From NCBI RefSeq assembly GCF_058153355.1, contig NZ_CM177019.1: a stretch of 64,000 bases of DNA; one strand, given 5' to 3'. Positions 9,306 through 42,519 of this stretch are shown in pieces. The position numbers were made by a program, and so were the translations under genes. Below the pieces are notes generated by a model. The model was not told the origin of the DNA. It ran no database searches and was given only the letters and a program-made list of their open reading frames with translations. Position 1 is the first letter of the stretch, and the number at the start of each line of letters is the position of its first letter.

Positions 9306-10745
9306 TTACGACTGTAAATAAACCACCTGGGTCTGCAGGTATTCATGCAAGCCATGTTTGCCATCTGCGCCGCCAATACCGGATTTACGCCATCCGGCGT
9401 GGAATCCTTGCATAGCTTCGAAGTTTTCACGGTTGATGTAAGTTTCACCAAACTTCAGCCCTTTAATAGCTTTCATCGCGACGTTCAGATTTTGGGTATA
9501 GAGTGATGAGGTCAGGCCGTAATCACTGTCATTAGCCATTGCGATAGCCTCTTCCAGCGTGTCAAATGCGACCACTGGCAGCACCGGGCCAAAGGTTTCC
9601 TCGTGCATAATCGACATTTCCTGACGAACATCCAGTAGCAATGTCGGCGGATAATAATATCCTTTCCCCTCTACTGCCTTGCCCCCCAACGCCACTCTCG
9701 CCCCCTCTTCGACTGCGCGCGCCACTTTTTGCTCGACCCTTTCCAGCGCCGCGGCGTTAATCAACGGCCCCATCGCAATGTCGTTGCGTTCAGCGGGGTT
9801 ACCAAATTGAACCGCCTGCATCGCTTCACCCAGCCGATTGACGAACTGATCATAAATGCCTTTCTGTACATAAACACGTTCTGCACAGTTACACACTTGC
9901 CCACTATTAATGACGCGTGAATCAACGATGGCTTTGACTGCCAGTTCAAGATCGGCATCGTCCATTACAATAGCTGGTGCTTTCCCCCCCAGCTCAAGAC
10001 ACACTTTGGTGATATTTTTCGCTGCAGTCGCCATGATCTTCTCACCAGCAGAAACACTGCCTGTCATACTGACCATTGCGACCTTTGGGTTACCCGCCAG
10101 TTCTTGCCCAACGGTTTCACCACGCCCCAGCACAAGGTTAAACACACCGCGTGGAAGGCCTATTTCATCGACAATTTTGGCAAAAGCAATCGCATTGTTT
10201 GGCGTAAATTCACTGGGTTTAATGACGATAGTATTACCGGTCAAAAGAGCGGGAGCCATTTTGCGGGCAATGAGGAAGAACGGGAAGTTCCACGGCAGAA
10301 TGCCGGTAGTCACGCCAAGCGCACGTTTAAACAGAAGAATATTTTCTCCTGGACGATCGCTTTGAATAATCTCGCCTTCATAACGCCGTGCCCACTCCGC
10401 CATGTAATCGATATAGTCCGCAGTAAAAGCCACTTCGACTTCAGACAGCTGCTGGATCTTGCCCCCTTCTTCAACAATCAGCGCACTAATTTCACTGGCG
10501 CGTTCGCGGATCCCGGCGGAGATTTTGCGCAACCAACTGGCGCGTTCAATGGCAGGCAACGCTTCCCATTCTGGTTGTGCACGTTCTGCTGCATCGATTG
10601 CCTTACGGGCATCCTCGGCCTGACCATCGGGAATGCGGGAAATGACCGCCTCTGTAGCAGGGTTTACCACATCAATCCATGCGTCTCCACGCCAGGTAAC
10701 AAACTGTCCATCTATATACATAGGATGTTGAACGGGTACTGACAT
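9306..10745 (-). CDS. aldA: lactaldehyde dehydrogenase (NAD-dependent aldehyde dehydrogenase A)
   Basis: 479-aa ORF, ALDH family; matches AldA. Confidence 0.95.
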   Translation of the reverse strand: MSVPVQHPMYIDGQFVTWRGDAWIDVVNPATEAVISRIPDGQAEDARKAIDAAERAQPEWEALPAIERASWLRKISAGIRERASEISALIVEEGGKIQQLSEVEVAFTADYIDYMAEWARRYEGEIIQSDRPGENILLFKRALGVTTGILPWNFPFFLIARKMAPALLTGNTIVIKPSEFTPNNAIAFAKIVDEIGLPRGVFNLVLGRGETVGQELAGNPKVAMVSMTGSVSAGEKIMATAAKNITKVCLELGGKAPAIVMDDADLELAVKAIVDSRVINSGQVCNCAERVYVQKGIYDQFVNRLGEAMQAVQFGNPAERNDIAMGPLINAAALERVEQKVARAVEEGARVALGGKAVEGKGYYYPPTLLLDVRQEMSIMHEETFGPVLPVVAFDTLEEAIAMANDSDYGLTSSLYTQNLNVAMKAIKGLKFGETYINRENFEAMQGFHAGWRKSGIGGADGKHGLHEYLQTQVVYLQS

Positions 10746-10940
10746 GGGCGACTCCTGTGATTTATATGTTTGTTTTTGGTAAATGCATTGTTAATTAACA
10801 TCAATCATCATAGAGACGGCATCGTGAAAGGACAATTCTGTGAAGGGCTTCATAAAAACAAGTGTAAAAGGAATAAAAGGCAGAAATAAACGTCAGGAGT
10901 CATGCCCGTTTGCAAACAGTTGTTCTCAAACGGGCAATTT

Positions 10941-11741
10941 TCAACGTAGCGAGCGACTTTCCATCGCCTCGATAAGCACAGCATCGTGTTTCAGCCTTTG
11001 CCATGCCTGGGTGACTTCTGCAGGAAAATCAACGTGAACGATAAAATCTCGCCCGCGTGGACCGTAGCCATCGCTATCATCGCGTAAACGTGGCAGCTCG
11101 CCAGTGAGTAGTGAGAGATAACGCTCAACCGGCCATAATCCTTGCAACGGATTAACAAAGATTACACTGTCTGCGTTGTTTCCTAGCTGAGGAACGAATC
11201 CGGGATAACTTAACCAGCGAGGTGCATCTGGATTGTCCCCGGTCATACGGCGGAACGTCGCCATCGTGCGCCGCTGCATGGTGGGGTCCTGAACAACGAT
11301 AGCCGTATGAACTCTTTCTACGGCCTGATTCAATAGCGCGATGCTAAAGCGTGCGTTTTCACCGCAGTTTGTTGACTGGTCTTCAATCCAGATTTTTTCA
11401 TGCGGAATGTGCCAGAACTGATGAGCGATATCCGCCAGGATGGTAGCTTCTGCTCTGCCAGTGGTGCGGATAGTGTTGTAGTGCGGATGCTGTGCGATGG
11501 CGCTATACAAAAAAGTTGTCGAGTGACCGATACCACCACTAATCAGTAGAGGAATTTGCTGATCGCGGGCAATCTTACATGCCGCATCGATAGTCGGCAT
11601 AACCGCATTGCCTGCAAGGATCACGCAATCGGCCTGATATGGCTCCTCTCCGGAGAAATCATCCTGCGCCAGCCACTGTCCGATAACATTTATGGCATCT
11701 ATGGTTGCCGTCGAAAGCGTCGGAAACGGGGTAATGTTCAT
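10941..11741 (-). CDS. ydcF: DUF218-family protein YdcF
   Basis: 266-aa [27 protein letters not shown]...; matches YdcF. Confidence 0.9.
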
Positions 11742-12155
11742 GGTTCCTCCTTATAGTTCCCTTAAGAATACTGCGTGAGATAATAATGAGAAGCGGAGCC
11801 ATCTGAAAGGTAGTTGATGCTTTTTCTATCGCGCCATCGCGAACCAGACACTTGTTTAAGTCATACACTATTTGCGGAGAAACTGTTGATAAAACATCAA
11901 TAACATAATGTTCTATCATTTTTAAATGACAGATAATCTGGTGTGATATTTATATAATATTCATTCTTATATTTCTCAATCAAGGGGAACATTTGGTATC
12001 CAGTGTATCGTCCTCATCAACCAGATGTGTTATAAGCACTTTACCTCGTTAATTTTAATATTACGAGTTACAGGACAAAACATCACTCGAATTTAGTCCA
12101 GTAACTCGTAGTAGCCAGAGTATACGTACCCATTGATAAAATGTCTGGCAATAAA

Positions 12156-13013
12156 TTAACCAGCTATACTCGCACTCGTCGGCCCTGTTTCAATACTACC
12201 CACAATATCAATAATGTGCCCCCAGAACATATCATCATCGTTATAATATAATGAATAATCTCTATTATAATCCATAGTCAACTCAACAAGATTTATTCTG
12301 CTAACAAACATATCTTCTGTAATTTCTTCATCTTCTTCATCTTGAAGCCAGTCATTGGCCAATTCAGTTAATTGTTCTGCGGCATATTGCCTAAACTCCT
12401 GATCTTTTTGTTGCATATGACTACATAAAAATCGCAGATTTTCAAAAGCCTGTTGCCAGGTATATCTATCATTCTTATCTACTTCCATAGATACAGAAAT
12501 ATTCTGATCATTCCATTTCACTTCCCCGCTAAAACAGGAGTAGTCTTTATTAAGCACGAAAGTCCCCAATTGCTGATCTTCAACAACAACTGGTTTGCGA
12601 TATTCTTTCTGAATATTGAGCAGTTCCTCACACTGAACATGACTTTCAAGAACCTCAAGAACATAAAACCGATTATAAAACTCGGCTAACTTTCCTTCCG
12701 GCACGGTCCTGTCAATCAAATCTCGTACTCTCAGGCGATATATACCACCAGACTGCATATTAAACGGCCACGCACAGCCTTGAGTTTTCTCATTTTCTTC
12801 TGTTATCAACCAGTTGAGTCGTCCATCTCCAACGTGAATTTCTCCCGTCGTCAGACTCTTCCAGGCGAGTAAGTGTTCAACCGCTGTCCAGTAATTATCA
12901 CCGTTACTCTTACCCGCGCCACCGCCAGTATCACTAAGAAGAACGATAATTTCTTCTTCTGTATCTTTAAATGTATGACTAAATTTTTTGTATTCTTCAG
13001 AATTTAAGTCCAT
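12156..13013 (-). CDS. orphan hypothetical protein (285 aa, acidic, no recognisable motif) in AT-rich islet
   Basis: single long ORF in a visibly AT-rich insert between ydcF and hrpA; ATG preceded by a GGGG SD-like run; no TM, signal peptide, HTH or nucleotide-binding motif seen. Confidence 0.6.
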   Translation of the reverse strand: MDLNSEEYKKFSHTFKDTEEEIIVLLSDTGGGAGKSNGDNYWTAVEHLLAWKSLTTGEIHVGDGRLNWLITEENEKTQGCAWPFNMQSGGIYRLRVRDLIDRTVPEGKLAEFYNRFYVLEVLESHVQCEELLNIQKEYRKPVVVEDQQLGTFVLNKDYSCFSGEVKWNDQNISVSMEVDKNDRYTWQQAFENLRFLCSHMQQKDQEFRQYAAEQLTELANDWLQDEEDEEITEDMFVSRINLVELTMDYNRDYSLYYNDDDMFWGHIIDIVGSIETGPTSASIAG

Positions 13014-13163
13014 TTTTGCCCCGGTGAAAAATAAATTTGATCAATAACATTGAGTGCCGCAGTAATGAATGTGTTATCGATAATTCAAAAATGACTGCGT
13101 ACGCCACAAGCCTACTCCCTACGCGACGTAAGGAGTACCGCCCTTGCTATTTTTCAGAATTCA

Positions 13164-13195
13164 TAAAAAAACCCGGCGCTAAATGCTTACCGGGT
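13164..13195 (-). terminator. rho-independent terminator of hrpA
   Basis: ACCCGG...CCGGGT hairpin followed by a 7-nt T run on the minus strand, about 30 nt past the hrpA stop. Confidence 0.6.
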
Positions 13196-13222
13196 TTTAG
13201 ATTTATCAGGCAAATAGCAGTG

Positions 13223-16200
13223 TTAACCGCTAATCTGTTCCATCGCCTGCAGAATACGCTTATCTGAAATCGGATAGGGTGTACCGAGTTGTTGGGCAAA
13301 ATAGCTGACGCGCAACTCCTCTATCATCCAGCGTATCTCTTTCACGTCTTCATCCTCACGACGTGCAGGCGGCAGTTTGTTGATCCATTGCTGCCACGCC
13401 TGCTGGACGTTTTCAACTTTCAGCATCTGAGCACGGTCACGGTGCGGGTCAACCGCCAGTTTTTCCAGACGCTTTTCAATCGCCTGCAAATAACGCAGCG
13501 TGTCGCCCAGGCGTTTGAAGCCATTACCAGTGACAAAACCGCGATACACCAGCCCACTCATCTGCGCTTTAATGTCAGAAAGCCCCAGCGCCATGGTCAT
13601 ATCCACCCGCCCTTTCAGGCGTTTGTTGATATTGAACACCGCTGTGAGGATTTGCTCGACCTGCTTCGCAATATCCACCACCGTGTCGTTCAGTTCAGCG
13701 CGCACTTTTTCATGCAACGCAGCAAAGCCTTCTTCCGTCCAGACCGGGCCGCCCGCCTCATCAATCAATTTATCAACACCGCAGGAGATGCAGTCGTCAA
13801 TAAGATCCAGCACTTTACCGTACGGGTTAAAGTAGAGACCCAGCTTTGCTTTATTCGGCAGTTTCTCATGCAGATATTTAATTGGCGACGGAATGTTCAG
13901 CAACAGCAAGCGACGCAAACCACGCCACATAGCCTGCTGTTGTTCCTGCGGGTTATCAAAAAGCTTAATCGCTACGCTGTCACGCTCATCCACCAGCGCA
14001 GGCCAGGCCTTCACTTTGTAGTTGCCACGTTTCTGCTCGTAGTGATCCGGTAAATTACCGAAGCTCCAGATATGTAACCCGCTTTGCTCAATACCATCAT
14101 CGGCAACGGCGGAAAGCGTTTCCTGCACTTTGCCTTTCAGGGCATCTTTCAGATCCTGTAATGAGCGCCCTTCTTTTAGCTTCTTATTTTTGTCGTCCAC
14201 CACGCGGAAGGTGATTTTCAGGTGATCAGGCACCTGATCCCAGTGCCAGTCTTCGCGGTCAACGGTAACGCCGGTCATCCGCCGTAGCTCGCGCTCAAGG
14301 CTGTCGAGCAACGGCAGTTCCAACGGCGTGACGCGACCTAAAAACGCTTCGGCGTAGTTTGGCGCGGGCACAAAATTACGCCGTACCGGTTTCGGCAACG
14401 ATTTGATTAGAGCAATCACCAGTTCACGGCGCAGGCCTGGGATCTGCCACTCAAACCCGCTTTCCTCAACCTGGTTAAGTAACGGCAGCGGAATATGCAC
14501 GGTCACACCGTCAGCATCCGCCCCCGGCTCAAACTGATAGCTTAAACGCAGCTTGAGATTGCCCTGATGCCAGAAGTTCGGGTAATCCAGCTTGCTGATT
14601 TTTTCCGCCCCTTCTTTGATCAACATGCTCTTTTCAAAGTTGAGCAAATCAGGTGTTTCGCGGCTGACTTTTTTCCACCAACTATCAAAGTGTCGTGCGG
14701 AAATCACATCGTGGCTGATGCGCTGGTCGTAAAACTCAAACAACGTTTCGTCATCCACCAGAATATCGCGGCGACGTGATTTGTGTTCCAGTTCTTCCAC
14801 TTCTGCCCGTAGTTTCAGGTTTTCACGGAAGAATGCGTGACGCGTCTGCCAGTCACCTTCCACCAGCGCGTGGCGAATAAAAAGTTCACGACACAGCGCA
14901 GGATCAATCTGGCTGTAGTTGACCTTACGCGCAGCAACAATCGGCAACCCGTAAACGGTGACTTTTTCAGTTGCCATCACCGCGCCCTGCGCCCGTTCCC
15001 AGTGCGGTTCGCTGTAGGAGCGTTTAATCAAATGCTGGGCAACTGGCTCTACCCATTCCGGATCGATGCGTGCCGCAATGCGCCCCCACAGGCGGCTGGT
15101 TTCTACCAGTTCCGCCACCATTGCCCATTTCGGCGGCTTCTTGAATAAACCAGAACCGGGGAAGATGGAGAAACGCGCGTTACGTGCGCCGGTATATTCC
15201 TGTTTATCGGCATCTTTCATGCCGATATGCGAAAGCAAACCTGTCAGTAAGGCGATGTGAATTTCGCGATACTCCGCCGGTTCGCTGTTAACCGGAATGC
15301 CAAGTTCTTTCACCACCTGGCGCAACTGGGTGTAGATATCCTGCCATTCGCGCACGCGCAGATAGTTAAGGTAATCGGTACGGCACAGGCGACGGAAGGC
15401 GTTTGAAGAGAGCGCCTTTTGCTGCTCGCCGAGATAATTCCACAGATTTACAAACGCCAGGAAGTCGGATTCTTTATCGTGAAAGCGACGATGTTTTTCG
15501 TCCGATGCCTGCTGCTTGTCCATTGGCCGCTCACGCGGGTCCTGAATAGAGAGCGCGGAAGTGATAATCATCGCCTCACGCACGCAGCCATGTTTCTGCG
15601 CTTCCAACACCATTCGCGCCAGACGAGGATCGACTGGCAGTTGCGAGAGCTGGCGACCGAGCGGCGTCAGTTTATAGGCGCTGGCCTGTTCATCAGTGGT
15701 GATCGCGCCCAGCTCTTCGAGCAGACGCACGCCATCCTGGATATTGCGTTTATCCGGCGCTTCTACAAACGGGAACGCAGCGATATCGCCCAGCCCCAGC
15801 GCGGTCATCTGCAAAATAACCGAGGCCAGGTTGGTACGCAGAATCTCCGGATCGGTAAATTCCGGGCGCGAGAGGAAATCGTCTTCGGAATAAAGACGAA
15901 TGCAGATCCCTTCTGACACACGACCACAGCGGCCTTTACGCTGATTAGCTGAAGCCTGCGAAATGGGCTCAATCGGCAGACGCTGTACTTTGGTGCGATA
16001 GCTGTAGCGGCTAATACGCGCCGTACCTGGGTCGATAACGTATTTAATCCCCGGCACGGTCAGCGACGTTTCCGCGACGTTAGTCGCCAGCACAATGCGC
16101 CGTCCGCTGTGCGACTGGAAGACGCGGTTCTGCTCGCTGTTCGAAAGCCGTGCATAAAGCGGAAGAATTTCCGTATGGCGTAAGTTCAGCTTGTTCAGCG

Positions 16201-17125
16201 CATCGGCGGTATCGCGAATTTCTCGCTCGCCGCTCATAAAAATCAGAATGTCGCCAGGGCTTTCCTGGCTCAGTTCATCTACGGCATCGAAAATCGCCTG
16301 CAACTGGTCGCGCTCGGTGTCATCAGCTTCTTCAACAATCGGGCGATAGCGCACCTCCACCGGATAGGTACGACCGGAGACTTCGATAATCGGCGCATTA
16401 TTAAAGTGGCGCGAAAAGCGTTCCGGGTCGATAGTCGCGGAAGTGATAATGATTTTTAGGTCAGGACGCCGCGGCAGTAACTCTTTCAAATAACCGAGGA
16501 GAAAATCGATATTCAGGCTGCGTTCGTGCGCTTCGTCAATAATGATGGTGTCGTACTGCATCAGCAGGCGGTCTTGCTGGAGCTCCGCCAGCAGGATACC
16601 GTCGGTCATCAGCTTGACCATCGTGTTATCACTTACGTGATCGCTGAAACGCACTTTATACCCGATGCAACCGCCCGGCTCCGTTTTCAGCTCTTCCGCA
16701 ATACGGTTCGCCACCGTTCGTGCCGCCAGACGACGCGGCTGGGTATGGCCGATCAGCCCTTTAATCCCGCGGCCCAGTTCCATACAGATTTTCGGTAGCT
16801 GAGTCGTTTTCCCGGAACCCGTTTCCCCGGCGACGATCACCACCTGGTGATCACGGATTGCTTCGAGAATGTCCTGCTTTTTCTGACTAACCGGCAAATT
16901 GTCTGGATAAGTGATTTCCGGTCGTACTGCTTCACGCAGCAGGACTTTCCCTGCCGCCTGGTCAATCTCTTTCGCCATCTCCTGGAAAATGGCCTGTTGT
17001 GCATCAGGATTTTTAACCTTCTTCACGCCGTGCAGACGGCGGGAAAAACGCAGTCTGTCACGCAGCATCAGCGAATCCAACCGTTGCTGCAAGGCCGTAA
17101 AGGTCAATTTTTGTTGTTCTGTCAT
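13223..17125 (-). CDS. hrpA: ATP-dependent RNA helicase HrpA (DEAH-box)
   Basis: 1300-aa ORF with GETGSGKTTQ Walker A and DEAH motifs; matches HrpA. Confidence 0.95.
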   Translation of the reverse strand: MTEQQKLTFTALQQRLDSLMLRDRLRFSRRLHGVKKVKNPDAQQAIFQEMAKEIDQAAGKVLLREAVRPEITYPDNLPVSQKKQDILEAIRDHQVVIVAGETGSGKTTQLPKICMELGRGIKGLIGHTQPRRLAARTVANRIAEELKTEPGGCIGYKVRFSDHVSDNTMVKLMTDGILLAELQQDRLLMQYDTIIIDEAHERSLNIDFLLGYLKELLPRRPDLKIIITSATIDPERFSRHFNNAPIIEVSGRTYPVEVRYRPIVEEADDTERDQLQAIFDAVDELSQESPGDILIFMSGEREIRDTADALNKLNLRHTEILPLYARLSNSEQNRVFQSHSGRRIVLATNVAETSLTVPGIKYVIDPGTARISRYSYRTKVQRLPIEPISQASANQRKGRCGRVSEGICIRLYSEDDFLSRPEFTDPEILRTNLASVILQMTALGLGDIAAFPFVEAPDKRNIQDGVRLLEELGAITTDEQASAYKLTPLGRQLSQLPVDPRLARMVLEAQKHGCVREAMIITSALSIQDPRERPMDKQQASDEKHRRFHDKESDFLAFVNLWNYLGEQQKALSSNAFRRLCRTDYLNYLRVREWQDIYTQLRQVVKELGIPVNSEPAEYREIHIALLTGLLSHIGMKDADKQEYTGARNARFSIFPGSGLFKKPPKWAMVAELVETSRLWGRIAARIDPEWVEPVAQHLIKRSYSEPHWERAQGAVMATEKVTVYGLPIVAARKVNYSQIDPALCRELFIRHALVEGDWQTRHAFFRENLKLRAEVEELEHKSRRRDILVDDETLFEFYDQRISHDVISARHFDSWWKKVSRETPDLLNFEKSMLIKEGAEKISKLDYPNFWHQGNLKLRLSYQFEPGADADGVTVHIPLPLLNQVEESGFEWQIPGLRRELVIALIKSLPKPVRRNFVPAPNYAEAFLGRVTPLELPLLDSLERELRRMTGVTVDREDWHWDQVPDHLKITFRVVDDKNKKLKEGRSLQDLKDALKGKVQETLSAVADDGIEQSGLHIWSFGNLPDHYEQKRGNYKVKAWPALVDERDSVAIKLFDNPQEQQQAMWRGLRRLLLLNIPSPIKYLHEKLPNKAKLGLYFNPYGKVLDLIDDCISCGVDKLIDEAGGPVWTEEGFAALHEKVRAELNDTVVDIAKQVEQILTAVFNINKRLKGRVDMTMALGLSDIKAQMSGLVYRGFVTGNGFKRLGDTLRYLQAIEKRLEKLAVDPHRDRAQMLKVENVQQAWQQWINKLPPARREDEDVKEIRWMIEELRVSYFAQQLGTPYPISDKRILQAMEQISG

Positions 17126-37436: not shown

Positions 37437-40400
37437 ATGATTACTATTGACGGTAATGGCGCGGTTGCTTCGGTGGCGTTTCGCACCAGTGAAGTTATCG
37501 CCATCTACCCTATTACCCCCAGTTCCACGATGGCAGAACAGGCTGATGCATGGGCCGGAAACGGCTTGAAAAACGTTTGGGGAGACACACCACGCGTGGT
37601 TGAAATGCAGTCGGAAGCGGGTGCTATCGCTACCGTGCATGGTGCTTTGCAAACTGGCGCCCTCTCAACATCGTTTACGTCATCGCAGGGTTTGCTGCTG
37701 ATGATCCCAACGCTGTACAAACTGGCAGGCGAACTGACGCCGTTTGTCCTGCATGTTGCGGCTCGTACCGTTGCCACACATGCACTCTCTATTTTTGGCG
37801 ATCATTCCGACGTCATGGCAGTGCGCCAGACGGGTTGCGCGATGTTGTGTGCAGCAAACGTCCAGGAGGCGCAAGACTTTGCTCTCATTTCGCACATTGC
37901 GACGCTGAAAAGTCGCGTGCCATTTATTCATTTCTTTGATGGTTTCCGCACCTCCCACGAGATCAATAAAATTGTCCCGCTGGCCGATGACACTATTCTT
38001 GAACTGATGCCGCAGGCAGAAATTGATGCTCATCGCGCCCGTGCACTCAACCCGGAACATCCGGTGATCCGCGGTACGTCCGCCAATCCTGACACTTATT
38101 TCCAGTCTCGCGAAGCCACCAACCCATGGTACAACGCAGTCTATGACCATGTTGAACAGGCGATGAATGATTTCGCTGCCGCGACAGGTCGCCAGTATCA
38201 GCCGTTTGAGTATTACGGGCATCCACAAGCGGAACGGGTGATTATCCTGATGGGCTCTGCCATTGACACCTGTGAAGAAGTGGTTGATGAATTGCTAACC
38301 CGTGGCGAAAAAGTCGGCGTGCTGAAAGTTCGCCTGTACCGTCCCTTCTCCGCCAAACACTTACTGCAAGCGTTGCCGGACTCTGTTCGGACAGTGGCGG
38401 TGCTGGATCGCACCAAAGAGCCAGGTGCGCAAGCGGAACCCCTGTACCTGGATGTGATGACCGCACTGGCAGAAGCCTTTAATAATGGCGAGCGTGAAAC
38501 CCTGCCCCGTGTCATTGGTGGGCGCTATGGTCTTTCATCCAAAGAATTTGGCCCGGACTGTGTACTGGCGGTATTTGCCGAGCTCAACGCGGCTAAACCG
38601 AAAGCGCGCTTTACGGTTGGTATTTACGATGATGTGACCAATCTGTCACTGCCGTTGCCGGAAAACACCCTGCCAAACTCGGCGAAACTGGAAGCCTTGT
38701 TTTATGGTCTTGGTAGTGATGGCAGCGTTTCCGCGACCAAAAACAATATCAAGATTATCGGTAATTCCACGCCGTGGTACGCACAGGGCTATTTTGTTTA
38801 CGACTCCAAAAAGGCGGGCGGCCTGACGGTTTCTCACCTTCGCGTGAGCGAACAGCCGATTCGTTCCGCTTATCTCATTTCCCAGGCTGATTTTGTTGGC
38901 TGCCACCAGTTGCAGTTTATCGATAAATATCAGATGGCTGAACGTTTAAAACCTGGCGGCATTTTCCTGCTCAACACGCCGTACAGCGCAGATGAAGTAT
39001 GGTCGCGCTTGCCGCAGGAAGTTCAGGCCGTGTTAAACCAGAAAAAAGCGCGCTTCTATGTGATTAACGCGGCGAAAATCGCCCGTGAATGTGGCCTGGC
39101 GGCCCGTATTAATACCGTCATGCAGATGGCTTTTTTCCATCTGACGCAAATTCTGCCTGGCGATAGCGCCCTGGCCGAATTGCAGGGCGCTATCGCCAAA
39201 AGCTACAGCAGCAAAGGCCAGGATCTGGTGGAACGCAACTGGCAGGCTCTGGCACTGGCGCGTGAATCGGTAGAAGAAGTTCCGCTGCAGCCGGTTAATC
39301 CGCACAGCGCCAATCGACCGCCTGTGGTTTCCGATGCTGCTCCTGATTTCGTGAAAACCGTTACCGCTGCGATGCTCGCCGGACTTGGCGATGCTCTCCC
39401 CGTTTCGGCGCTGCCGCCAGACGGCACCTGGCCGATGGGTACCACCCGCTGGGAAAAACGCAATATTGCCGAAGAGATCCCCATCTGGAAAGAGGAACTC
39501 TGTACCCAATGTAACCACTGCGTTGCCGCTTGCCCACACTCAGCTATTCGCGCCAAAGTGGTGCCGCCTGAAGCAATGGAAAATGCCCCTGCCAGCCTGC
39601 ATTCGCTGGATGTAAAATCGCGTGATATGCGCGGGCAGAAATATGTCTTGCAGGTAGCTCCGGAAGATTGCACCGGCTGTAACCTGTGCGTCGAAGTTTG
39701 CCCGGCGAAAGACCGTCAGGATCCAGAGATTAAAGCCATCAATATGATGTCGCGCCTGGAACATGTCGAGGAAGAGAAAATCAATTACGACTTCTTCCTG
39801 AATTTACCAGAAATCGATCGCAGCAAACTGGAACGTATTGATATTCGTACATCGCAACTGATTACACCGCTGTTTGAATATTCAGGTGCTTGCTCTGGTT
39901 GTGGCGAGACGCCGTATATTAAATTGCTGACTCAGCTCTATGGCGATCGGATGTTGATCGCTAACGCTACGGGTTGTTCTTCAATTTATGGTGGTAACCT
40001 GCCCTCCACACCATATACCACTGATGCCAACGGTCGTGGACCGGCATGGGCGAACTCGCTGTTTGAAGATAACGCCGAATTCGGCCTTGGTTTCCGCCTG
40101 ACGGTCGATCAACACCGTGTCCGCGTGCTGCGTCTGCTGGATCAATTTGCCGATAAAATCCCGGCGGAATTACTGACTGCGTTGAAATCAGACGCCACGC
40201 CAGAGGTTCGTCGTGAACAGGTTGCAGCTTTACGCCAGCAACTCAACGATGTTGCCGAAGCACATGAACTGCTACGTGATGCAGATGCACTGGTGGAAAA
40301 ATCAATCTGGCTGATTGGTGGCGATGGCTGGGCTTACGATATCGGCTTTGGCGGTCTGGATCATGTATTGAGTCTGACGGAAAACGTCAACATTCTGGTG

Positions 40401-40961
40401 CTGGATACGCAATGCTATTCCAACACCGGTGGTCAGGCGTCGAAAGCGACACCGCTGGGTGCAGTAACTAAATTTGGCGAGCACGGCAAACGTAAAGCGC
40501 GTAAAGATCTTGGCGTCAGTATGATGATGTACGGTCATGTTTATGTGGCGCAAATTTCTCTCGGCGCGCAGCTCAACCAGACAGTGAAAGCGATTCAGGA
40601 AGCAGAAGCGTATCCGGGACCATCGCTGATCATCGCTTATAGCCCGTGTGAAGAGCATGGTTACGATCTGGCACTCAGTCACGACCAGATGCGCCAACTC
40701 ACTGCCACCGGCTTCTGGCCGCTATATCGCTTCGATCCACGTCGAGCCGATGAAGGCAAACTACCGCTGGCACTGGATTCACGCCCGCCGTCAGAAGCAC
40801 TGGAAGAAACGTTACTTCACGAGCAGCGTTTCCGTCGTCTGAATTCACAGCAGCCAGAAGTGGCAGAACAGTTATGGAAAGATGCCGTAGCTGATTTGCA
40901 AAAACGCTATGACTTCCTGGCACAAATGGCCGGAAAAGCGGAAAAAAGCAACACCGATTAA
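37437..40961 (+). CDS. ydbK: pyruvate:flavodoxin oxidoreductase (PFOR)
   Basis: 1174-aa ORF with 4Fe-4S ferredoxin cysteine clusters (CTQCNHCVAACP, CTGCNLCVEVCP) and TPP-binding region; matches YdbK/Pfo. Confidence 0.95.
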   Translation: MITIDGNGAVASVAFRTSEVIAIYPITPSSTMAEQADAWAGNGLKNVWGDTPRVVEMQSEAGAIATVHGALQTGALSTSFTSSQGLLLMIPTLYKLAGELTPFVLHVAARTVATHALSIFGDHSDVMAVRQTGCAMLCAANVQEAQDFALISHIATLKSRVPFIHFFDGFRTSHEINKIVPLADDTILELMPQAEIDAHRARALNPEHPVIRGTSANPDTYFQSREATNPWYNAVYDHVEQAMNDFAAATGRQYQPFEYYGHPQAERVIILMGSAIDTCEEVVDELLTRGEKVGVLKVRLYRPFSAKHLLQALPDSVRTVAVLDRTKEPGAQAEPLYLDVMTALAEAFNNGERETLPRVIGGRYGLSSKEFGPDCVLAVFAELNAAKPKARFTVGIYDDVTNLSLPLPENTLPNSAKLEALFYGLGSDGSVSATKNNIKIIGNSTPWYAQGYFVYDSKKAGGLTVSHLRVSEQPIRSAYLISQADFVGCHQLQFIDKYQMAERLKPGGIFLLNTPYSADEVWSRLPQEVQAVLNQKKARFYVINAAKIARECGLAARINTVMQMAFFHLTQILPGDSALAELQGAIAKSYSSKGQDLVERNWQALALARESVEEVPLQPVNPHSANRPPVVSDAAPDFVKTVTAAMLAGLGDALPVSALPPDGTWPMGTTRWEKRNIAEEIPIWKEELCTQCNHCVAACPHSAIRAKVVPPEAMENAPASLHSLDVKSRDMRGQKYVLQVAPEDCTGCNLCVEVCPAKDRQDPEIKAINMMSRLEHVEEEKINYDFFLNLPEIDRSKLERIDIRTSQLITPLFEYSGACSGCGETPYIKLLTQLYGDRMLIANATGCSSIYGGNLPSTPYTTDANGRGPAWANSLFEDNAEFGLGFRLTVDQHRVRVLRLLDQFADKIPAELLTALKSDATPEVRREQVAALRQQLNDVAEAHELLRDADALVEKSIWLIGGDGWAYDIGFGGLDHVLSLTENVNILVLDTQCYSNTGGQASKATPLGAVTKFGEHGKRKARKDLGVSMMMYGHVYVAQISLGAQLNQTVKAIQEAEAYPGPSLIIAYSPCEEHGYDLALSHDQMRQLTATGFWPLYRFDPRRADEGKLPLALDSRPPSEALEETLLHEQRFRRLNSQQPEVAEQLWKDAVADLQKRYDFLAQMAGKAEKSNTD

Positions 40962-40990
40962 ATGCTCTGGATAAGGATTATCCAATTCTA

Positions 40991-41099
40991 AAAAAAAGCC
41001 CGAACGACTGTTCGGGCTTGTCTTCTTATATGTTGGAAAATCAGTGGCAATGCAATGGCCCAACAGAAAATAAAATCTGTGACAATAAAGGCATATAAC
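40991..41099 (-). ncRNA. micC: MicC sRNA (Hfq-dependent repressor of ompC/ompD)
   Basis: minus strand reads GTTATATGCCTTTATTGTCACAGATTTTATTTTCTGTTGGGCCATTGCATTGCC...GCCCGAACAGTCGTTCGGGCTTTTTTTT, recognised as MicC; terminator shared with ydbK. Confidence 0.85.
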
Positions 41100-41326
41100 C
41101 CGCGCAGAATAACGTATAGCAAATTAAAAGTATAATTTTTATTTTGTATGTATTATCTTCGATACATTCACCAGACTTATTATCATTTCAGAGGAATTAT
41201 TTGATTAAGGTTTTACTTAAGGCGTAACAAATGATATTTATCGGCTAACTGAACTTCTCCTTTAGGATGTTTTCATTCCCCGAAATGGGGATAAAAGGCA
41301 AATAAAATAACTAAAGGATTTATTCA

Positions 41327-42460
41327 ATGAAAAGCAAAGTACTGGCACTTTTAATTCCTGCCCTGCTCGCCGCAGGTGCTGCACATGCAGCCGAAGTTTA
41401 TAATAAAGACGGCAACAAATTAGATCTGTATGGCAAAGTTGATGGCCTGCATTATTTTTCTGATAATTCAGCGAAAGATGGCGACCAGAGCTATGCGCGT
41501 CTGGGTTTTAAAGGCGAAACCCAAATTAACGATCAACTTACTGGCTACGGTCAATGGGAATACAATATTCAGGCAAACAACACTGAATCTTCAAAAAACC
41601 AGTCATGGACCCGTCTGGCATTTGCCGGACTGAAATTTGCAGATTACGGTTCTTTCGATTACGGACGTAATTATGGCGTAATGTACGACATCGAAGGCTG
41701 GACCGATATGCTGCCTGAATTTGGCGGTGACTCTTATACCAATGCAGACAACTTTATGACTGGTCGTGCCAATGGCGTCGCGACTTATCGTAACACTGAT
41801 TTCTTCGGTCTGGTAAATGGTCTGAACTTCGCGGTGCAGTATCAAGGTAACAACGAAGGAGCCAGTAATGGTCAGGAAGGCACCAACAACGGACGTGATG
41901 TTCGCCATGAAAACGGTGACGGCTGGGGTCTTTCCACAACATATGATTTAGGCATGGGCTTTAGCGCTGGTGCGGCATACACCTCTTCTGACCGCACCAA
42001 TGACCAGGTTAACCATACTGCGGCTGGTGGTGATAAAGCAGACGCGTGGACTGCTGGGCTAAAATACGATGCTAACAATATTTACCTGGCAACCATGTAT
42101 TCAGAAACGCGTAATATGACCCCGTTTGGCGACAGCGATTATGCTGTTGCAAACAAAACCCAGAACTTTGAAGTCACTGCACAGTACCAGTTTGATTTTG
42201 GTCTGCGTCCGGCAGTCTCTTTCCTGATGTCTAAAGGCCGTGACCTGCACGCTACCGGTGGTGCAGACAACCCGGCAGGTGTTGATGATAAAGATCTTGT
42301 AAAATACGCCGATGTTGGCGCGACTTACTATTTCAATAAAAATATGTCCACTTATGTTGACTATAAAATCAACCTGTTGGATGAAGATGACAGTTTCTAT
42401 GCTGCTAACGGCATCTCTACCGATGATATTGTCGCTTTAGGTCTGGTTTATCAGTTCTAA
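41327..42460 (+). CDS. ompN: outer membrane porin N
   Basis: 377-aa ORF with signal peptide and porin C-terminus (...VALGLVYQF); matches OmpN. Confidence 0.95.
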
Positions 42461-42468
42461 ATCCTCCT

Positions 42469-42493
42469 GCCCGCTGTTATGGCGGGCTTTTTC
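42469..42493 (+). terminator. rho-independent terminator of ompN
   Basis: GCCCGC-TGTTATG-GCGGGC hairpin followed by TTTTTC. Confidence 0.65.
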
Positions 42494-42519
42494 TGCTTAT
42501 TCTTCCTCCTTTGATCTAA

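Follow-up and report, generated by a model that had tools for sequence, protein, structure and literature searches.

A DUF7021–DUF2262 gene in the strain-variable ydcF–hrpA spacer of Escherichia coli: a candidate orphan immunity gene

What is the role of a gene that stands between ydcF and hrpA in a handful of Escherichia coli strains, at a site that is empty in most others? The two flanking genes are close neighbours in K-12, as an earlier note on this locus had stated: only ∼271 bp lie between them in E2348/69 and in K-12-like strains. The 64,000-nucleotide stretch analysed here, from contig NZ_CM177019.1 of RefSeq assembly GCF_058153355.1 and hereafter called the window, carries an AT-rich islet between ydcF (10941..11741) and hrpA (13223..17125), with a GC content of 0.33–0.43 over positions 11700–13200 against ∼0.50–0.58 in the two genes. 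The islet harbours one intact open reading frame (ORF) on the minus strand (12156..13013, stop codon included), whose product of 285 amino acids has the N-terminus and the DEEDEE stretch that the earlier note quoted. The explanation favoured here, at a probability of about 55% and by association, is that its product acts as a stand-alone ('orphan') immunity protein and binds a toxin that arrives from other bacteria. Immunity was one of three functions put forward in the earlier note, together with antitoxin and anti-phage defence, and is preferred because relatives of the gene lie in polyimmunity arrays in many genomes, because a SUKH cassette occupies the same site in other strains and because the islet includes a CdiI-type gene.

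The protein itself had been described as an orphan with no assignable motif. This view does not survive comparison with Pfam: the product is a DUF7021–DUF2262 protein that aligns over its full length with its homologues and has thousands of relatives. DUF7021 (PF22886) covers residues 8–138 (12600..12992, minus strand; 5.8e-31, model positions 2–123 of 123) and DUF2262 (PF10020) covers residues 146–283 (12165..12578, minus strand; 4.2e-43, model positions 1–142 of 142). The predicted model, with a mean predicted local distance difference test score (pLDDT) of 93.8, consists of an oligonucleotide/oligosaccharide-binding (OB)-like barrel of five strands, ordered b1-b2-b3-helix-b4-b5, and a C-terminal domain without a close solved relative. 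The latter comprises four strands, two long helices, the acidic loop with DEEDEE, one helix and four further strands. By fold, neither domain has an enzyme relative in the PDB, and PDB sequence searches with full-length and C-domain profiles returned nothing meaningful.

Both domains are acidic: the whole protein has an isoelectric point (pI) of 4.42 and a net charge of −29, the N-terminal domain a pI of 4.9 and a charge of −9, and the family median pI is 4.4. The protein is cytoplasmic, with no transmembrane segment, signal peptide or catalytic or effector Pfam domain, and scans against NCBIfam, PADLOC and PHROGs yielded sub-threshold noise only. These properties fit a binder. The nearest known counterparts include acidic protein inhibitors and DNA mimics, among them Ugi, Ocr/ArdA and the cystatin-like inhibitors. 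Although the N-terminal domain has the OB topology, it shows no Pfam or PDB sequence match to the single-stranded DNA-binding proteins that share this fold (SSB, RPA, PriB), from which it further differs in its acidity and in the absence of oligomerization and DNA-binding motifs. The OB-like domain is more likely to present a protein-binding surface than to bind single-stranded DNA. Nine residues are invariant in the family alignment (G150, L215, A219, F236, D259, F263, G265, H266 and G285) and the window protein retains all nine. Also conserved are the motifs AAExLTELANDW and YYNDDDMFWGH and the C-terminal IAG.

The family is large and occurs sporadically in different phyla. Among 5.8 billion proteins searched, 112 relatives were recovered, nearly all with the two-domain architecture: PF10020 was found in all 112, and PF22886 as well in all but five short or fused ones. 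Identity to the window protein is 82–93% in Escherichia, 44–49% in Bacteroidota, 32–45% in Clostridia and ∼33% in Bacillaceae. An exhaustive profile search gathered 3,080 family clusters at 50% identity, and AFDB contributed 375 structural matches, all uncharacterized and many from oral and gut taxa. Some copies reside on integrative and conjugative elements (ICEs) and plasmids.

Where do these relatives stand in their genomes? The ORFs of 80 species-level genome loci were clustered for a neighbourhood analysis. A named immunity family lies within 10 kb of the gene in 40 of the 80 loci, and in 35 of the 55 loci that extend over at least 12 kb. In Oscillospiraceae and Lachnospiraceae the gene is part of long, shuffled arrays that keep to one strand and frequently include two or three DUF2262 paralogues; those of Flavonifractor and other Oscillospiraceae have short gaps between genes and an adjoining tyrosine integrase. 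Two arrays with precomputed Pfam annotation contain Imm17, SUKH-3, Imm-NTF2, SUFU, ankyrin, LRR, TPR, DUF4241, DUF5713, NADAR and DUF6138. A separate, unrelated array in Clostridia includes Imm44, Imm26/Imm51 and Imm68+DUF1963, and its DUF2262 protein, 44–45% identical to that of the window, belongs to the subfamily closest to it. The association with recognized Imm families thereby recurs in two unrelated array types. A copy in Flammeovirgaceae adjoins a DUF1963 gene.

Heterogeneous polyimmunity loci have been described as co-oriented, tightly spaced and strain-variable gene arrays that lie near a recombinase and lack a toxin gene, and several Imm families were originally named by array membership alone (Zhang et al. 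2012, PMC3482391). The DUF2262 arrays, same-strand, tight, strain-variable, toxin-free and beside an integrase, fit this description, and the E. coli site resembles it in being strain-variable and in holding SUKH and CdiI-like genes. Two differences stand out. No DUF2262 or DUF7021 is named among the Imm families in the main text of that study or in one small supplementary file, and the literature searched here yielded no mention of either. Moreover, a polyimmunity locus has at least two tandem, co-oriented immunity genes with short spacers, whereas the window has a single intact gene and two relics, and no recombinase. A second point of comparison is provided by the acquired interbacterial defence (AID) clusters and their recombinase-associated form (rAID), which, like the arrays considered here, are low in GC and mobile and assemble orphan immunity genes in bacteria of the gut. 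These arrays were shown by experiment to protect strains that lack the toxins, and to do so against type VI secretion system (T6SS) toxins (Ross et al. 2019, 10.1101/471110). The 5' XerD-like recombinase and the repeated intergenic sequences that mark rAID clusters in Bacteroidales are absent from the E. coli site.

Upstream of Clostridial immunity-type arrays, at a distance of a few genes, lie relaxases of the MobP3 family with fused Sel1/TPR repeats (L089 2476–5349; L050 35–2716), and some arrays sit among ICE genes. The position downstream of the relaxases indicates that the Clostridial arrays are cargo of conjugative or mobilizable elements. Such an association could also be read as the signature of a factor that helps a mobile element to establish itself, for instance an acidic protein that mimics DNA and, once conjugation has brought the element in, blocks restriction or other defences of the host. 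This is distinctly unlikely: phages are nearly devoid of the family, which is found in none of 50,697 phage records and in one of 2.9 million viral contigs, the gene is chromosomal in E. coli and in many other genomes with no mobile-element genes nearby, and in the arrays it keeps company with immunity families rather than with Ard, Acr or Psi genes.

The same neighbourhoods bear on the proposal that the islet encodes a compact, single-gene anti-phage defence protein. The AT-rich, strain-variable character of the islet would suit such a protein, and a few relatives are found near NACHT and KAP NTPases (L105), an AAA/DUF4276-like pair (L115) or AbiEi/AbiEii (L104). The chances of this explanation are nonetheless slim: PADLOC returned a sole, non-significant match to JukB (E 0.039, 11 bits), effector domains, be they of nuclease, TIR, SIR2, pore or other type, are lacking from the protein, and it is immunity genes, not defence systems, that dominate the neighbourhoods. 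The antitoxin option is likewise unsupported, since there is no adjacent partner ORF in the window, in L001 or in the fuller islets described below, and none is conserved across loci.

Several observations weigh against an immunity role. A hunt for toxin genes covered the upstream neighbours of the gene in 80 genome and 80 metagenome loci, together with NCBIfam scans of eight large array-side proteins. In none of the ∼170 loci examined did a recognizable toxin gene stand directly upstream of DUF2262: the upstream genes are housekeeping or other array genes, and the eight large proteins are relaxases, a glycosidase, TPR proteins or housekeeping proteins. As there is no cognate pair, the assignment to immunity is one of guilt by association. 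The 40 loci with named immunity families are not independent events either, because many Clostridial arrays are carried by related mobile elements. Around half of the loci are stand-alone genes among housekeeping genes, and these include most of the closest relatives outside Escherichia. In addition, the Fusobacterium nucleatum group keeps the gene, at 81% identity or more, beside rplM/rpsI, a pattern that looks more like that of a stable cellular gene and is unlike the patchy spread elsewhere; a search started from the Fusobacterium homologue retrieved orthologues from that genus alone. Finally, the conserved D...F.GH motif and the conserved C-terminus could constitute a ligand-binding or catalytic site. 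The weak ribosome-binding site of the window ORF and its lack of a consensus promoter, discussed below, point in the same direction.

Part of this evidence would be accommodated by a cell-intrinsic role, exerted through a ligand-binding or enzymatic Asp/His pocket or as an OB-fold nucleic-acid or protein chaperone, with the gene hitch-hiking in accessory arrays. The many solitary copies among housekeeping genes, the conservation in Fusobacterium, the OB-like fold and the invariance of D259, F263, G265, H266 and the C-terminal G285 all speak for it. Such a role sits poorly with a gene that is found in so few E. coli genomes and is a pseudogene in one Escherichia lineage. The acidity of both domains is ill suited to nucleic-acid binding, neither sequence nor fold points to an enzyme as a relative, and array paralogues degrade the motif. 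On balance a cell-intrinsic role is judged rather unlikely. Two of these second paralogues (L065 13964–14866; L054 15704–16543) have DCDEMFTDH in place of DDDMFWGH, with the Asp and the His kept. In Fusobacterium vincentii the homologue (L102 8947–9927), which has no acidic loop, is flanked by an IS200-type transposase on one side and rplM/rpsI on the other.

The E. coli locus provides a separate line of evidence for orphan immunity. A survey of 5,426 complete E. coli genomes in RefSeq showed that the ydcF–hrpA site is empty in most of them and that its gene content varies within the species. The DUF2262 gene, annotated in RefSeq as 'DUF2262 domain-containing protein', is present at this same site in only four genomes (three copies ∼99% identical, one 91%). 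It is absent from K-12-like genomes and matches no characterized housekeeping family, two results on which the earlier note had let its proposal stand or fall. A SUKH (SMI1/KNR4) gene followed by a gene for 99 amino acids is found in 186 genomes, and a cassette of four genes, A (141 amino acids), B (112), C (143) and D (125), in 586 (∼11%), O157:H7 among them. The fuller order hrpA-DUF2262-A-B-C-D-ydcF, all on one strand and with C truncated, occurs in two E. coli contigs (L010, L011); of their five co-oriented genes, D alone is independently tied to immunity. No Pfam, NCBIfam or PADLOC family matches A, B, C or the 99-residue SUKH partner, and B bears no relation to D. The ydcF–hrpA spacer thus amounts to a small array of stand-alone immunity genes whose content varies from strain to strain, and of this decaying array the window gene alone is left intact.

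Genes A, B and C of the four-gene cassette are tightly packed, with gaps of 4 and −14 nucleotides (L004 5116–6804 in O157:H7; L010 6997–8685). The site is also occupied beyond E. coli. In Escherichia sp. MOD1-EC7003 (L017 5302–6097) a DUF2262 gene split by a frameshift or deletion is accompanied by A–D, and in Escherichia albertii (L018 5174–6049) an intact DUF2262 allele, 51% identical, directly follows hrpA.

Gene D (L004 5116–5493) connects the spacer with a known toxin system. Its homologues (L187–L190 7001–7387; 46% identity, E ∼1e-30) follow CdiA at a distance of 6 bp in both Yersinia mollaretii and Duffyella gerundensis, and these CdiA proteins, of TPS / Fil_haemagg / PT-VENN architecture, carry the same C-terminal toxin (CdiA-CT). 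Another homologue follows an ICE-borne CdiA-CT fragment. Since this is the canonical position of CdiI, D in E. coli is an orphan cdiI-type gene, and it follows that the ydcF–hrpA site collects stand-alone immunity genes. Such orphans, cdiI genes that lack a cdiA, are well known. The likeness to CdiI concerns gene D, of which the window holds only a relic; no DUF2262 gene was ever seen after cdiA. The CdiA-CT paired with D (...GRSKLFER...IQSGKNRIKFRYDE) belongs to no Pfam family, and A, B and C show no match to it.

How the islet of the window came into being can be partly read from its boundaries. Comparison with empty ydcF–hrpA sites delimits the whole islet at 11811..13149, where it stands in place of ∼150 bp of the empty site, with no visible target-site duplication. 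The intrinsic terminator hairpin of hrpA (∼13165–13199, minus strand), already recognized in the earlier note, lies outside the islet and belongs to the backbone common to empty sites. The DUF2262 cassette proper spans 12040..13125, as judged from its junctions when set against L002 and L103, two loci of the SUKH type. Its 3' part (12040..12155, minus strand, from the same junctions) contains a short AT-rich hairpin (CTCGTTAAT...ATTACGAG), and its 5' part (13014..13125, minus strand) a weak Shine-Dalgarno-like GGGG and the palindrome TTATCGATAA. Two relics precede the cassette on the ydcF side. The first (11857..11922, minus strand) corresponds to the last ∼20 codons, MIEHYVI..DVLSTVSPQIVYD, of the 125-residue gene D. 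The second (11995..12039, plus strand) is a 45-bp remnant of the SUKH cassette, in register with the 3' end of the 99-residue gene that stands after the SMI1/KNR4 gene in other strains; 41–42 of its 45 positions match L002 5143–5187 and L103 5537–5581. No recombinase of the XerC/D or other tyrosine type is encoded between ydcF and hrpA.

The DUF2262 and SUKH cassettes adjoin the 45-bp element 11995–12039 from opposite sides. This arrangement suggests an older array that once held both cassettes and was later shrunk by deletions at short repeats (ATTTG). As the two cassettes lie on opposite strands and have adjacent insertion points, they are not alleles of each other. The SUKH protein bears no sequence or fold relationship to the DUF2262 protein; what the two have in common is the site, where the SUKH gene is present also in the closest relatives of the window by hrpA allele. 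Indeed, most strains with an hrpA allele at 99% identity or above to that of the window carry the SUKH cassette. Such strains are few: the window hrpA matches that of 5,394 E. coli genomes at only 90–95% identity and that of no more than 11 at 99% or above. The ompN-nifJ segment (window 40000–42500) is 95–99% identical to most genomes. With hrpA divergent while ompN-nifJ is close to most genomes, the hrpA-proximal region of the window lineage looks like an old or imported allele (synonymous divergence, dS, of 0.37 from typical E. coli).

Is the gene still of use to its host? Intact frames in decaying islets may be silent relics, no longer expressed or useful, and the remnants of two neighbouring genes in the window, the frameshifted allele in one lineage, the lack of a consensus promoter and the hrpA terminator upstream of the gene would all be in keeping with this. 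The pattern of substitution argues otherwise. Between the window and L010 alleles the ratio of nonsynonymous to synonymous divergence (dN/dS) is 0.25 at a dS of 0.40, which is indicative of purifying selection on a functional gene. Moreover, the ORF is full length, has kept every invariant residue and is undisrupted, at ∼99% identity, in three other E. coli strains. Decay in other strains, which the earlier note would have taken, jointly with a lack of expression, as the mark of a dead remnant, does occur in one lineage, Escherichia sp. MOD1-EC7003. A silent relic is judged very improbable. The adjacent hrpA has a dN/dS of 0.02 at a dS of 0.37. The ∼12-fold higher ratio of the DUF2262 gene at similar dS implies that it evolves much faster than its neighbours, and the similar dS itself that it diverged in step with them and is not a recent arrival.

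Signals for expression are modest. The Shine-Dalgarno-like GGGG (13019–13022) is weak and lies 5 nucleotides before the ATG; in the L010 allele it reads GGAG. There is no match to the sigma-70 consensus upstream of the ORF. Expression of the gene in the window is presumed. The two palindromes to which the earlier note had drawn attention as possible operator sites both exist, each slightly displaced: the perfect 10-bp palindrome TTATCGATAA is at 13074–13083, not 13075–13084, and occurs twice in the window, and the imperfect inverted repeat (arms of 11 bp with one mismatch, 3-nucleotide loop) is at 13113..13137, not 13121–13145. An operator function was rejected, as perfect 10-bp palindromes number 63 in the window, approximately the chance expectation. 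The inverted repeat crosses the right-hand junction of the cassette at ∼13125/13126, so that only its right arm is shared with the backbone.

If the DUF2262 gene does specify orphan immunity, the mechanism may be envisaged as follows. The highly acidic, cytoplasmic two-domain protein would bind and block a toxin domain delivered by competing bacteria through contact-dependent growth inhibition (CDI), the T6SS, the type VII secretion system or a similar route, and a strain that does not make the toxin itself would thereby be protected. The negative charge that runs through the family invites the speculation that the target is a basic, nucleic-acid-directed toxin, for example a nuclease. A more ambitious version holds that the family, with its ∼3,000 clusters at 50% identity, is a large and overlooked immunity family that acts as more than a passive plug. 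The OB-like barrel, the acidic C-terminal domain and the conserved Asp/His pocket would then make up either a nucleic-acid mimic that traps nuclease-type toxins of several secretion systems or an enzyme that reverses a modification made by the toxin. This version, taken as a whole, seems improbable. If true, it would mean unusually broad protection at the level of toxin families and would account for the frequency of lone genes far from toxins.

What is already known and what is new can be separated. The protein belongs to a catalogued DUF family and the locus to an established type, that of orphan-immunity arrays, and not to a new kind of system. The link of DUF7021–DUF2262 with immunity arrays and the status of ydcF–hrpA as a small immunity hotspot appear to be new. 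If the immunity assignment is correct, it would provide a function for two paired Pfam DUFs that thousands of bacteria from the gut, the mouth and the environment possess, and the known repertoire of interbacterial immunity proteins would gain a structurally distinct family with an OB-like and a new C-terminal domain. Rare as the gene is in E. coli, the ydcF–hrpA spacer as a hotspot of gain and loss of orphan immunity genes (DUF2262, SUKH and CdiI-like) is a tractable site for studying how strains accumulate protection against the toxins of their rivals.

Variants of the architecture exist within the family. Long members (P0331, P0245, P0358, P0273) display N-terminal transmembrane segments, two OB-like domains or a read-through fusion to the array neighbour DUF5713; no informative fusions were found among them. 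In ∼10 Oscillospiraceae species a 460-residue DUF6138 gene precedes the DUF2262 gene with an overlap of 8 bp, forming a conserved pair (L052, L058, L064, L065, L073, L080, L083, L084 and L092, around 9983–10843). DUF6138 also occurs as tandem paralogues (L099).

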